The notes: generated from the sequence alone by a model not told the origin. DNA of 35,015 nucleotides from an uncultured Methanosarcinales archaeon (GCA_964373285.1 CAYJTR010000001.1:1-35015); one strand, 5' to 3'; positions 3,146-6,400 are shown, numbered from the stretch's first letter. Translations and numbers: made by a program.

Positions 3146-4489
3146 TTACTCAACACTTACTTTTTGTCCTTCTGTTATTGGGTGCAGTGTTTTGCCTTTT
3201 TCGTAACCCATTTTTTCTGCTAGTTGTACGAATGCCTCTATTACTTTCTTGTTGCTGTGGGCTGGTATAACGTTTTTTGGTTTTAACAGGTGTATCATGT
3301 CTCTCATGTCTTCTCTTCCTCCGTGTCCTGATACGTGTATCCCTTTGAATATTCTTAATCCTTTTGCTCTTAATTTTTCTTCTAATTTTTCTCTTAGTGC
3401 AATGTTTACTTCTGTTGGTATTACGTTGCATGAGAATATTATGTGGTCTTCGTGGTGGAATGGGAATGGCAGCACCCCGTCGGCCATTTTTGATAGTACT
3501 GCTCTTGGTTCTCCTTGATGTCCTGTTGTTATCAGCAAATATTTATGTATTCCTTTATTTATTATTTTGCTTAATTCTTTTTTTGCCTGGCTTGAATATC
3601 TTACTATATATACGTCTTTGCCGAAGTGTGTTACTCCCGCGTTTTCTGCTGCTTGAATATATTTAGCCAGTGATCTTCCTATAAGCACCGGTTTTCTCCC
3701 TAATTTTTGTGCAAACTCTATTGCGCTTTTTATTCTTGCTATGTGCGATGAGAACGTTGTTACAAGAACTGCTCTGTTCTTATTGTCAACGTTTAGTAAT
3801 ACATCTCTCAGCATTTCTCTGGCTATCATTTCTGAAGCGGTTTTTCTTTCATCGTCTGCGTATAAAGTGTCTATTATAGCTACTTTCACTCCTTTTTCTG
3901 ATAATTTTTTCATCCCTTCATAATTTGGTTTTTGTCCTAGTATTGGATTGTTGTCGAGCTTGAAGTCGTTGGTGTACGCTATTATTCCTTCGGGTGTGTG
4001 CAGTGCCGCTATTACGCTTTGGGGTGTTGAGTGTGTTATTCCTAAAAATTCCAGCGTTACGTTTTCAGAAATTTTCATACTGCTGTTCGGGTGCATTGTT
4101 CTTATCTTATTGGGTATTTTTCTTTTCTGGTCTCTTAATATTTCTTTTATTACTTCTCCGGTGAAAGGCGTGCAGTATAATGGCACGTTGTATCTTTCCG
4201 CTATGTATGGTATCGCTCCTATGTGGTCTAGGTGTGCATGAGTTGTTATTATCGCTTTAACTTTTTTTCTTAGAGATTCTATCATTGTGTCGTCAGGTAT
4301 TGCCTTGGCTTTTCTTAGCTCTTCTGTTGTATGCTTTTTCAGCTCTGTCTCTTCTTCTTCGGTATATTTTATGTAGTTGGGCATGTGTAATCCCATATCG
4401 AAAAGGAACACTTCTTCACCAACTTTTACCGCAGTCATATTTCTTCCTACTTCTCCGTAGCCTCCCACTGCGCATATTTCTATTGACAT
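3146..4489 (-). CDS. rnj: Archaeal RNase J (beta-CASP metallo-beta-lactamase ribonuclease)
   Basis: N-terminus MSIEICAVGGYGEVGRNMTAVKVGEEVFLFDMG, motif HAHLDHIGAIPY (HxHxDH), about 447 aa with no KH domains. Confidence 0.85.
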   Translation of the reverse strand: MSIEICAVGGYGEVGRNMTAVKVGEEVFLFDMGLHMPNYIKYTEEEETELKKHTTEELRKAKAIPDDTMIESLRKKVKAIITTHAHLDHIGAIPYIAERYNVPLYCTPFTGEVIKEILRDQKRKIPNKIRTMHPNSSMKISENVTLEFLGITHSTPQSVIAALHTPEGIIAYTNDFKLDNNPILGQKPNYEGMKKLSEKGVKVAIIDTLYADDERKTASEMIAREMLRDVLLNVDNKNRAVLVTTFSSHIARIKSAIEFAQKLGRKPVLIGRSLAKYIQAAENAGVTHFGKDVYIVRYSSQAKKELSKIINKGIHKYLLITTGHQGEPRAVLSKMADGVLPFPFHHEDHIIFSCNVIPTEVNIALREKLEEKLRAKGLRIFKGIHVSGHGGREDMRDMIHLLKPKNVIPAHSNKKVIEAFVQLAEKMGYEKGKTLHPITEGQKVSVE

Positions 4490-4654: not shown

Positions 4655-4696
4655 TGCGCTTTTATCCAATCTTTGGCGTCTTTTTGATTGTTGTTT

Positions 4697-4780
4697 GCAG
4701 GGATGCCGGAGTGGCCAAACGGGGCAGACTCAAGATCTGCTGGCTTAGTGCCTTCGCAGGTTCGAATCCTGCTCCCTGCA
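4697..4780 (+). tRNA. tRNA-Leu (anticodon CAA), class II with long variable arm, no encoded CCA
   Basis: Cloverleaf folded by hand. Acceptor GCAGGGA/TCCCTGC, D stem CCG/CGG, anticodon stem GCAGA/TCTGC with loop CTCAAGA. Variable arm GGC-TTAGT-GCC, T arm GCAGG-TTCGAAT-CCTGC, discriminator A. Confidence 0.9.
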
Positions 4781-4954
4781 TTTGTATTTTTGGGAGTGGG
4801 TTTGAGTTTTGAGTTGTGTTATACAGCAATTTAAGCCATTACCAATTAGAGTTATTACCCATCAAGGAATCTCTTATCAGGGGTTGAGCATTGCGAAATC
4901 CCTGGACGATTAAGGTTTTTGCATCAAACGGTTGCGAAGCAAGCGTTTGGTTTA

Positions 4955-4970
4955 AATCCTGCTCCCTGCA
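4955..4970 (+). repeat. Exact 16-nt copy of the tRNA-Leu 3' end (AATCCTGCTCCCTGCA), pseudo-copy 1
   Basis: Identical to 4765-4780. The extended form gtttggtttaaatcctgctccctgcattt is shared by all three pseudo-copies. The T stem is not conserved (TTTGG versus GCAGG). Confidence 0.9.
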
Positions 4971-5090
4971 TTTCTTTTTTTGTTTTGTCTTTGGTTTTTT
5001 TTTGTTGTTTTCTTTTTTTTTGGGGTTGTTTGTGTTCTTGTTGTTTTTTTTGTGGTTCTTGTTTTCTTTTTAGTGGTTGTTTTTTTTCTT
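4971..5090 (+). repeat. 120-nt G/T-only low-complexity tract (a single A, few C)
   Basis: tttctttttttgttttgtctttgg...gtggttgttttttttctt. The only A is at 5072. It is followed by a 9-bp hairpin GAGGGATTC/GAATCCCTC (5093-5120). Confidence 0.9.
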
Positions 5091-5172
5091 ATGAGGGATT
5101 CTCTTTTGTGTGAATCCCTCGACGATTTAAGGGTTTCTGGAGCAAACGGTTGCGTAGCAATTGTTTGGTTTA

Positions 5173-5188
5173 AATCCTGCTCCCTGCA
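5173..5188 (+). repeat. Exact 16-nt copy of the tRNA-Leu 3' end, pseudo-copy 2 (at the junction of the two 408-bp units)
   Basis: Identical to 4765-4780 and followed by the same downstream sequence as the genuine tRNA (tttgtatttttgggagtggg...). Confidence 0.9.
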
Positions 5189-5362
5189 TTTGTATTTTTG
5201 GGAGTGGGTTTGAGTTTTGAGTTGTGTTATACAGCAATTTAAGCCATTACCAATTAGAGTTATTACCCATCAAGGAATCTCTTATCAGGGGTTGAGCATT
5301 GCGAAATCCCTGGACGATTAAGGTTTTTGCATCAAACGGTTGCGAAGCAAGCGTTTGGTTTA

Positions 5363-5378
5363 AATCCTGCTCCCTGCA
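5363..5378 (+). repeat. Exact 16-nt copy of the tRNA-Leu 3' end, pseudo-copy 3
   Basis: Identical to 4955-4970, offset by 408 nt. Confidence 0.9.
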
Positions 5379-5498
5379 TTTCTTTTTTTGTTTTGTCTTT
5401 GGTTTTTTTTTGTTGTTTTCTTTTTTTTTGGGGTTGTTTGTGTTCTTGTTGTTTTTTTTGTGGTTCTTGTTTTCTTTTTAGTGGTTGTTTTTTTTCTT
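5379..5498 (+). repeat. Second copy of the 120-nt G/T-only tract
   Basis: Offset of 408 nt from 4971-5090. The hairpin copy lies at 5501-5528. Confidence 0.9.
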
Positions 5499-5618
5499 AT
5501 GAGGGATTCTCTTTTGTGTGAATCCCTCGACGATTTAAGGGTTTCTGGAGCAAACGGTTGCGTAGCAATTGTTTGGTCTGGATGGCTTCACTCCAACTCG
5601 ATACTCTGGAACAATAAA

Positions 5619-5627: not shown

Positions 5628-5662
5628 CCGTTGTAGTATCCCTTTTTTCGGGGGTTTTCGTT

Positions 5663-6400
5663 ATGAGGTTGTCTCTTTCGGATGTTAGTTATTTGCGTGA
5701 TAGTATTGGTGTTATTTCTGAGCTTGTTTCCGAGGGCAGGTTTTCTATTACTAAGAATGGTGTTGAGCTTGTTGCTATGGATCCTGCTAATGTTGCAATG
5801 ATTATTTTTAAGCTTCTTCCTTCTTGTTTTTCTGAGTATAATGTTGATGACCCTCAGGTTGTTGGTTTGAACCTTTCTAATTTGAAGCAGGTTTTGAGGC
5901 GTGCGGGTCTTGGTGATTCTTTGTCTTTGGAAATTTTTGATGGTAAGATTCATATTACTTTGGATGGCGCTTCTAAGAGAACTTTTAGTCTTCCCATTAT
6001 TGCTGTTGATGAGAGGGAGCAGAAGATTCCTTCACTTTCTTTTCCTTCGAGCATCACTCTTCCTAGTAGTGTTTTGACTAATGCTATTGAGGATGCGGGT
6101 ATTGTTGCTGAGAGTGTTTTGTTTACTGTCGAACCCGGTTTTTTTACTTTGAGTGCTGAGGGCGATCTTAGCAAGGCGAGTATTCAGACTAGGGAGGGTG
6201 ATGGCACCGTTATTCTTTCTGATAGTAAGACTAGGGCTAAGTATGCTATCGAGTATTTGAAAAAGATGGTTCAGGGTTCTAAAATTTCTGATTCTGTTAC
6301 TATTCGTATTGATACTAATTACCCTTTGAAGCTCGAGTATAGGTCTATTGATAAGGTTTCTTTGGAATTTATTCTTGCTCCAAGGGTTGATGATGTATGA
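5663..6400 (+). CDS. pcn: DNA polymerase sliding clamp (PCNA)
   Basis: 245 aa. N-terminus LRDSIGVISELVSEGRFSITKNGVELVAMDPANVAMIIFKL and C-terminus YPLKLEYRSIDKVSLEFILAPRV are typical archaeal PCNA. Confidence 0.9.
   Translation: MRLSLSDVSYLRDSIGVISELVSEGRFSITKNGVELVAMDPANVAMIIFKLLPSCFSEYNVDDPQVVGLNLSNLKQVLRRAGLGDSLSLEIFDGKIHITLDGASKRTFSLPIIAVDEREQKIPSLSFPSSITLPSSVLTNAIEDAGIVAESVLFTVEPGFFTLSAEGDLSKASIQTREGDGTVILSDSKTRAKYAIEYLKKMVQGSKISDSVTIRIDTNYPLKLEYRSIDKVSLEFILAPRVDDV

Follow-up and report, generated by a model that had tools for sequence, protein, structure and literature searches.

Two-hairpin elements and duplicated gene ends stacked downstream of tRNA-Leu(CAA) in a genus of small archaea

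Downstream of the tRNA-Leu(CAA) gene in a 35,015-nt stretch of archaeal DNA (GCA_964373285.1, CAYJTR010000001.1:1-35015; hereafter the window), short copies of the tRNA 3′ end alternate with a sequence of 65–90 nt that folds into two hairpins, here called element X. Judged from sequence searches, X appears to be a dispersed family restricted to one genus of Woesearchaeota-type archaea, and nearly every copy has a gene for a tRNA or a protein on its 5′ side and, on its 3′ side, a 6–65-nt duplicate of that gene's end. We read the locus as a stack of X-family insertions with their target duplicates that was afterwards duplicated in tandem, and we put the probability of this reading at about 0.6. 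The comparison covers three metagenome-assembled genomes (MAGs) of the genus, namely that of the window (G000, 953 kb) and two congeners (G001 and G002), one of which is a groundwater Candidatus Woesearchaeota MAG according to its record. Genes for tRNAs were called with ARAGORN and Rfam, tandem repeats with Tandem Repeats Finder (TRF) and protein domains with Pfam, while copies of X were located with two covariance models, one describing X without the tail (R2) and one describing its 5′ module only (R3).

An earlier reading of the window from sequence alone (the sequence-only reading) had noticed two 408-bp units directly after the tRNA that carry copies of its 3′ end, and TRF recovers exactly this repeat (4765–5577, period 408, 2.0 copies, 100% matches, no indels). 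The 16-mer AATCCTGCTCCCTGCA starts at 4765, 4955, 5173 and 5363 as described, and nowhere else in the genome; chance cannot account for four occurrences within 600 bp. Its 29-mer version likewise recurs at 4945, 5163 and 5353, and the two types of sub-repeat in each unit are related as had been supposed, being 88% identical over 69 nt (repeat family D3). The tail repeat measures 19 nt (25 nt with 2 mismatches), is present in four copies and runs from the T loop, where the copied segment starts at position A57/A58, to 3 nt beyond the discriminator. Each 408-bp unit has the order tail, spacer a, X_A, tail, T-rich spacer b, X_B, and the features of the locus are as follows.

4696–4781, plus strand: intact tRNA-Leu(CAA) (ARAGORN; Rfam tRNA, 55.6 bits)
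4765–4783, plus strand: tail copy 1, the last 16 nt of tRNA-Leu(CAA) plus TTT, the target segment (sequence)
4784–4871, plus strand: spacer of unit a, between tail copy 1 and X_A, with no open reading frame and no family match (sequence; no other genome copy by blastn-short)
4872–4954, plus strand: X member A, copy 1, with head TCTTATCAGG, hairpin 1, GGACGAT and hairpin 2 (TTGC-GAA-GCAA apex), ending ...GTTTGGTTTA (R2/R3)
4955–4973, plus strand: tail copy 2, AATCCTGCTCCCTGCATTT, duplicate of the tRNA from T loop to end plus TTT (exact match)
4974–5086, plus strand: spacer of unit b, T/G-rich and of low complexity (TRF rows at 4971–5087; repeat family D2)
5087–5172, plus strand: X member B, copy 1, with head TCTTATGAGG, hairpin 1 GAGGGATTC/GAATCCCTC, CGACGAT and hairpin 2 (TTGC-GTA-GCAA apex) (R2/R3)
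5173–5191, plus strand: tail copy 3, opening the second 408-bp unit (TRF; exact match)
5192–5279, plus strand: second copy of the unit a spacer, identical (TRF)
5280–5362, plus strand: X member A, copy 2, identical to 4872–4954 (R2/R3)
5363–5381, plus strand: tail copy 4 (exact match)
5382–5494, plus strand: second copy of the T/G-rich unit b spacer (TRF)
5495–5577, plus strand: X member B, copy 2, without a tail and fused directly to the conserved PCNA upstream region CAACTCGATACTCTGGAACAATAAAG, which is common to G002 (R2)
5663–6400, plus strand: PCNA gene, the native downstream neighbour, outside the element (Pfam PCNA_N, PCNA_C)
3146–4489, minus strand: gene for an RNase J/beta-CASP protein, the upstream neighbour (Pfam)

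Both members score well with the models: X_A reaches 66.8 bits with R2 and 50.6 bits with R3 (fold z of -3.0 as RNA and -4.1 as DNA), and X_B 76.3 and 42.4 bits (fold z of -5.0 and -5.6). The only open reading frame (ORF) of at least 80 aa in 4782–5577 is a 91-aa frame that overlaps the tRNA and was judged spurious. Separately, the head of X_B with its preceding T run (5083–5106, TTTTTCTTATGAGGGATTCTCTTT) is 79% identical to the PCNA start region (5655–5678, TTTTCGTTATGAGGTTGTCTCTTT), probably by chance.

Element X has a fixed order. Its sharp 5′ head, (T)TCTTATGRGG with the core YTTATGRGG, is followed by hairpin 1, the motif CYCGACGAT, a short linker and hairpin 2, which ends in ...TTTGG, and there is no conservation upstream of the head. 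This two-hairpin form was first seen on comparing members A and B with the G002 copy at the corresponding tRNA-Leu/PCNA site. The stem of hairpin 1 varies in sequence with pairing always kept, and its apex is often of the GCGNAGC type: the outer helix is 100% paired in 17 of 17 copies, with changes on both sides at four of its five pairs, and none of 500 shuffles did as well. Across the 14 full copies the two helices combined reach 93.8% pairing, with nine double-changed pairs, in an alignment that was fitted to the model and so is biased towards structure. In 640 nt of X, the gene-sense strand contains the sequence GCGN(1-2)AGC seven times, where the genome would predict 0.17, and many apexes are either GCGNAGC or GCGNNAGC; motifs of the GCGNAGC type form extraordinarily stable DNA mini-hairpins (PMC13037366). 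Both strands fold to two hairpins, the sense strand being the more stable by 3–5 kcal/mol. Matches to Rfam covariance models were to tRNAs only, with no known RNA family for X. X has no terminal inverted repeats, its inverted repeats being the internal hairpins only and its head and 3′ end not being complementary (by eye). Because the reading frames that start at the head ATG differ between copies (by eye), X is taken to be non-coding, and a small ORF inside it was discarded on the same observation.

At one further G000 locus (C71:2520–2605), about six tandem repeats of 14–15 nt (TTCTTATGACAAGT / TTTTATGACAAT) stand directly upstream of an X copy and repeat its head, as might be expected if joining or slippage had taken place there again and again; a second copy of the 3′ half of this X lies just downstream.

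The sequence-only reading had entertained a tRNA-derived repeat or small RNA locus. When copies of the sub-repeats were sought elsewhere, as it had proposed, they were found at other loci of G000 and in both congeners; its own reservation that the sub-repeats might have no other copies thus falls away, because such copies exist. The sub-repeats are neither derived from the tRNA nor specific to the locus and belong to a dispersed, genus-restricted family of 65–90-nt two-hairpin elements. R2 and R3 give eight matches at five G000 loci (contigs C1, C5, C7, C11 and C71), 11 matches in G002 and five in G001; counted as loci, there are five in G000, about nine in one congener and four in the other, so that X is present in three of three genomes of the genus. 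Searches of the family's 74 other genomes with either model recovered no X, and 150 genomes sampled from the order likewise yielded none. The head-plus-foot pattern, scanned against 185,579 species with one genome each (G000's own record was possibly omitted), matched only in the two congeners. Scans of IMG/VR with two patterns gave chance matches only and a scan of JGI metagenome contigs one GC-rich chance match; both need exact words, and absence there is weak evidence. Wherever it occurs, X lies on the sense strand just beyond the end of a gene, and three loci carry it in both G000 and G002.

The duplicates of gene ends beside X extend well beyond the window, and the targets are of several kinds.

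tRNA-Phe of G000: 17–18 nt duplicated; the insert is X alone, 85 nt, abutting the tRNA
tRNA-Leu(CAG) of G002: a T-loop piece, cut off by a convergent tRNA-Val
tRNA-Ala in the G002 rRNA operon: 6–7 nt; X is truncated
G002 gene for a 151-aa protein: 33 nt of the 3′ end; the orthologous G000 site has X without a duplicate
AsnC/Lrp-type regulator gene (Pfam): 42–46 nt of the 3′ end
radical-SAM gene of G001 (Pfam): about 48 nt of the 3′ end; three copies are stacked, with two X between them
G001 contig C58: 56 identical nt, three times, around a scaffold gap
ferredoxin gene on the opposite strand (Pfam): 65 nt of the 5′ end
tRNA gene on the opposite strand: 11 nt of the 5′ end
two other sites: 17 and 24 nt

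Where the arrangement could be judged (about ten informative cases), the live gene end always lies 5′ of X and the relic 3′ of it. On its right the repeat stops where the gene ends. The repeats at tRNA-Phe and at G002:C11 flank X directly, with 0–2 nt to spare, and at most loci a non-duplicated spacer of 17–115 nt lies between the gene end and X. Relic ORF ends differ from the live ends almost only at silent or stop-preserving positions, and in the two cases that could be polarised four of four relic changes are silent, which fits ends that once coded, as element-borne replacement ends would have done.

One X copy of G002 (C6, L142:1480-1545, minus strand) is followed by GGTTTAAATCCGGTGCGGCG and a T run that resemble a tRNA 3′ end. 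No tRNA matching GGTTTAAATCCGGTGCGGCG was found in any of the three genomes, and this tail may be a target copy carried in from elsewhere.

Comparison of orthologous sites shows X present at some and absent from others. The tRNA-Phe site is clean in G002, carries X and a duplicate in G000, and in G001 holds two decayed X-like inserts with two extra tails. Similarly, the end of the AsnC-type gene is clean in G000 (C14) and present as three stacked ends in G002 (C7), in the order live end, X, end 2, a different insert of 210 nt, end 3; the third end is the one most like the G000 sequence and is contiguous with the native flank. In both cases the two repeats at the insertion match the single-copy target of the relative's empty site. 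The second insert at G002:C7 (L161:1625-1835, between ends 2 and 3) is non-coding, about 210 nt long, with a hairpin of its own (ATCCGCGAA...TTCGCGGAT) and no X head, so that more than one kind of small insert would seem to use the same gene-end mode. Moreover, hairpin-1 sequences are more alike within a genome than at the same site in a sister species; for example, the stem is AGGTGC/GCACCT at G000:C11 and C5 and GAGGAC/GTCCTC at G002:C37. Differences in presence and absence, likeness within genomes and restriction to a genus are, taken together, what is usually seen with an element that is mobile or can at least be inserted.

The 3′ end of tRNA-Leu(CAA) itself appears from this comparison to be an insertion hot spot in all three species. 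Following the suggestion of the sequence-only reading that this flank be compared in relatives, one X and one tail, the latter with 1 mismatch, were found at the same tRNA-Leu/PCNA site of G002; in G000 two different members, A and B, are stacked there, each then followed by a tail copy. The short type of hairpin 2 (CAAACGGTTGC-GNA-GCAA..GTTTGG) together with GGTTTAAATCC and the tail is confined to this site, where G000 and G002 both have it. G001 has a different acceptor stem and a different insert of 97 nt without an X head, followed by a 22-nt duplicate of its own tail. Past this duplicate (C1, L005:1503-1700, L017:10000-12300), a 400-aa helix-turn-helix-like ORF and a protein with a Bro-N-like N-terminus (by eye) replace PCNA.

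These observations bear directly on whether X might be a resident functional RNA, or a cis-acting 3′-end element (for example a stabiliser, a signal for processing or termination, or a site where a protein binds), that is kept by selection and whose hairpins induced the duplicates by replication slippage. Strong compensatory change in both hairpins, folding z-scores down to -5, the invariable position on the sense strand past a gene end and the three loci occupied in both G000 and G002 are all what such an element would show. However, orthologous sites differ in whether X is present, the family is limited to one genus and has no Rfam match, and a copy is more like the others of its own genome than like its counterpart at the same site of the sister species (hairpin 1 of G000:C11 against G002:C37). 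Slippage should moreover leave an X after every duplicate, which is not the case, and we regard a resident element as very unlikely.

The extra tRNA tails had been considered by the sequence-only reading as a possible remnant of a decayed attachment (att) site of an integrative element. That part of the idea which sees them as att-like duplicates of a target site stands; the part which sees random remnants of large integrated elements does not, since the insertions are small, whole and of constant architecture, and neither an integrase remnant nor a viral or plasmid att partner was found. If the tails were nevertheless attL and attR remnants of conventional integrated viruses or plasmids, with the DNA between them left over after gene deletion, the span of the duplicate from T loop to tRNA end would be explained, as this is the classical T-loop sublocation of tyrosine integrases (PMC1762012), and the duplicated tRNA-Leu(CAA) tail of G001 is indeed followed by mobile-looking genes, including the Bro-N-like protein (by eye). 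Random deletions would not, however, give inserts at more than 20 places one and the same complete 65–90-nt architecture with a sharply defined 5′ boundary, nor leave an insert at tRNA-Phe consisting of X alone and 85 nt long; no ORF or integrase fragment lies between the tails and no X turned up in the IMG/VR scans. Scars of this conventional kind are, in our estimate, improbable.

Split tRNAs are known in DPANN archaea, and each tail-bearing unit ends in a perfect acceptor 3′ strand after a structured leader, so the units could be imagined as 3′ halves of split or permuted tRNA genes that are joined in trans to a 5′ half. We give this next to no credence. All five tRNA-Leu isoacceptors are intact with no second 5′ half, blastn-short found no sequence complementary to the leaders over more than 14 nt, the 5′ strand of the T stem is absent, and the same element carries the ends of protein genes elsewhere.

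Alternatively, X might be a transposon-like miniature element inserted by staggered cuts or target-primed copying, the repeats then being true target-site duplications of long and variable size. Such duplications fit tRNA-Phe and G002:C11, where the repeats flank X with 0–2 nt to spare, and reverse transcriptases are encoded in two of the three genomes. They do not fit the non-duplicated spacers of 17–115 nt at most loci, which a simple staggered cut does not give, nor the way in which the repeat and the gene share their right-hand limit; X lacks terminal inverted repeats, and the reverse transcriptases belong to ordinary diversity-generating retroelements, none of which lies near X or occurs in G000. 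An origin of this type consequently seems unlikely to us.

Two such retroelements were identified (G002 C26, L180:2393-2907; G001 C2, L183:2395-2840), each with a reverse transcriptase of about 350 aa; their template and variable repeats form pairs of 71–93 nt with 82–90% identity. A link between this enzyme and X was dismissed for the reasons just given, and the duplicates beside X differ by mixed transitions, unlike template and variable repeats, which differ at adenines.

The second 408-bp unit of the window would be most simply explained by a very recent tandem duplication of the tail-a-tail-b block, as the sequence-only reading had surmised, since the two copies are 100% identical. Might it instead be an artefact of assembly, the true locus having a single unit? 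Short reads are unable to count repeats that are 100% identical, and the G000 assembly does contain scaffold gaps flanked by duplicated sequence. Past X_B, however, the contig shows two different continuations, TTTAAATCC... and CTGGATGG..., and the B-to-tail junction has only 6 nt of left context in common with the A junction; at least two copies of B must therefore be present in the reads. A single-unit locus would hold no X_B-to-tail junction, the contig holds one, and a k-mer graph could not have invented it from 6 nt of shared left context. By this logic of the sequence a simple overlap-join artefact is disfavoured, and both congeners have tandem arrays of this sort; we think an artefact improbable. 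The second unit would have arisen by unequal recombination between tails, and the B-tail-a junction, which combines the left context of a native X-tail junction with the right context of the tRNA, is as expected of such an exchange. X_B would at one time have had its own tail, the terminal one having been deleted later.

Elsewhere in the G000 assembly (C9:7320-7530), a 100-N scaffold gap downstream of tRNA-Ile has an identical 55-nt sequence on both sides, a false duplication of the kind that scaffolding produces, which bears on the trust to be placed in exact repeats of this assembly.

How X comes to lie between two copies of a gene end can be outlined tentatively. In this model, which we hold with low confidence, X would move as a small unit equipped with a gene-end copy of its own, and would integrate by recombination within the carried copy, in an attP × attB or Campbell-type manner; the gene would stay intact and the older end would be displaced downstream. 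The hairpins, probably as folded single-stranded DNA of the gene-sense strand, would be the recognition site of a putative enzyme supplied in trans. Recombination within an element-borne end would explain the intact gene, the coincidence of the outer edge of the repeat with the gene end, the spacer between gene and X, the stacking with the native end outermost, and the relic ORF ends, whose departures from the live ends are nearly all silent or preserve the stop. When integration takes place inside a gene, its classical signature is a phage-borne replacement end with silent differences. For the integrase-driven ssrA islands, stacked direct repeats of the gene 3′ end with tandem inserts are described (PMC3146451), and Ms6 likewise integrates at the T loop of tRNA-Ala with a T-loop core (PMC1762012).

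Several results weigh against this account or against the insertion stack in general. Two X copies abut convergent RNA genes (5S rRNA and tRNA-Ile) without a visible duplicate; with changes in the live copy taken into account, silent changes are in no more than marginally significant excess; and the proximal end at G002:C7 is only weakly more diverged than its gene, its last 21 nt sharing 71% identity with G000 where the gene body shares 88%, so that comparison is only suggestive of a foreign origin for this end. No recombinase is linked to X, the sole G000 tyrosine recombinase (PF00589) being encoded on C10, far from any X; Cas1 (PF01867) is absent from all three genomes, and G000 has neither TnpB nor a serine recombinase. 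Y1 transposases of G000 and G001 have unrelated end hairpins and none was found in G002. The more than 12 different targets are hard to square with a classical sequence-specific integrase, and a free unit of 100–250 bp is very small for a circle. To these may be added the chance-only matches to viral and episomal sequences in IMG/VR, and the size of the data set, which is three metagenome-assembled genomes with the number of 408-bp units as assembled. Our low confidence in the mechanism reflects the missing linked recombinase, the unrelated Y1 ends, the retroelements lying away from X, the marginal silent excess and the weakly more diverged end at G002:C7.

Two IS200-like Y1 transposase genes of G000 (C16:150-680 and C62:1-720; 155 and 170 aa) have no TnpB partner and are flanked by hairpins of the CCCCATAGC...GCTATGGGG type (e.g. 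CCCCATAGCttgCTATGGGG, CCCCGCAGCttgCTGCGGGG) with no X. As candidates for the enzyme they were set aside, because their end hairpins differ from X and G002 has no such gene.

Taken one step further, X might be a minimal mobile DNA module of about 80 nt with two hairpins, which travels with a short copy of a host gene terminus as its address, integrates at gene ends without disruption and is served by a putative strand-specific, hairpin-recognising enzyme. This is a rather doubtful proposition at present; if true, it would be a homology-addressed, gene-end-preserving mode distinct from both transposons and classical integrase elements. With an 80-nt conserved structured module that has been inserted independently many times, cleanly empty sites and arrays both stacked and tandem, the mechanism becomes open to experiment. 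The case also shows that very small DPANN archaeal genomes carry a private repeat family which remodels the sequence around tRNA, rRNA and housekeeping genes, causes breaks in assemblies and is open to misreading as tRNA fragments, att scars or split tRNAs.

Among known systems, repetitive extragenic palindromic (REP) sequences, the bacterial interspersed mosaic elements (BIMEs) and hairpin-forming REP doublets (REPINs) built from them, and their REP-associated tyrosine transposases (RAYTs, of the Y1 type) offer several parallels: these too are short extragenic hairpin repeats of low to moderate copy number, with a conserved head by a palindrome of variable stem, mostly found past gene 3′ ends. 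REPs are not known to be flanked by target duplicates, whereas X is, and the Y1 genes found here are flanked by other hairpins, with none found in G002. Miniature inverted-repeat transposable elements (MITEs) and the palindrome-associated elements derived from IS200/IS605 resemble X in being small, non-autonomous, multi-copy, hairpin-bearing and genus-specific, and with MITEs X also shares the trait of a dispersed multi-copy family that differs in presence and absence. MITE duplications are short and fixed, and IS200/IS605 elements are not known to give any. X is not a MITE, because it has neither terminal inverted repeats nor a short fixed duplication, its duplicates varying from 6 to 65 nt. 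Casposons insert at the 3′ ends of tRNA or EF-2 genes and need Cas1, terminal inverted repeats and duplications of 14–15 bp. They are like X in inserting at a tRNA 3′ end and in a duplication that includes the gene end; unlike them, X has no terminal inverted repeats and no 14–15-bp duplication, and a casposon was rejected because no Cas1 is encoded in the three genomes.

Integrase elements at gene ends, known from the T loop of tRNAs, the ssrA 3′ end and the dusA 5′-end islands, are close to X in outcome: the repeats equal the gene terminus and, at tRNA genes, start in the T loop, the gene stays intact, and stacked insertions push older ends downstream (PMC1762012, PMC3146451, PMC4482086). 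X differs from them in its non-coding insert of 65–200 nt, in having no integrase nearby and in using one family for more than 12 targets that include 5′ ends. X lacks defining features of each of these families, having no integrase, no RAYT linkage and no inverted termini.

The remaining comparison is with insertions that make long target duplications, a class described for restriction-modification units and IS1630 (PMC2853133). Like X, these show an empty site in a relative, direct repeats whose length and variability far exceed those of transposon duplications and some of which overlap gene 3′ ends, and no mobility gene in the insert; they carry kilobases of gene cargo in bacteria between repeats of 30–400 bp, whereas X is a tiny structured archaeal element with a conserved sequence of its own. 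Measured against the >30-bp threshold of that class, the repeats of X reach 33–65 nt at five loci and 6–25 nt at tRNA sites, that of the window among them. Insertions of this class have been on record for years with no mechanism to explain them, and X would be their smallest form; X would be categorically new if a homology-addressed, hairpin-dependent mode of insertion were demonstrated.

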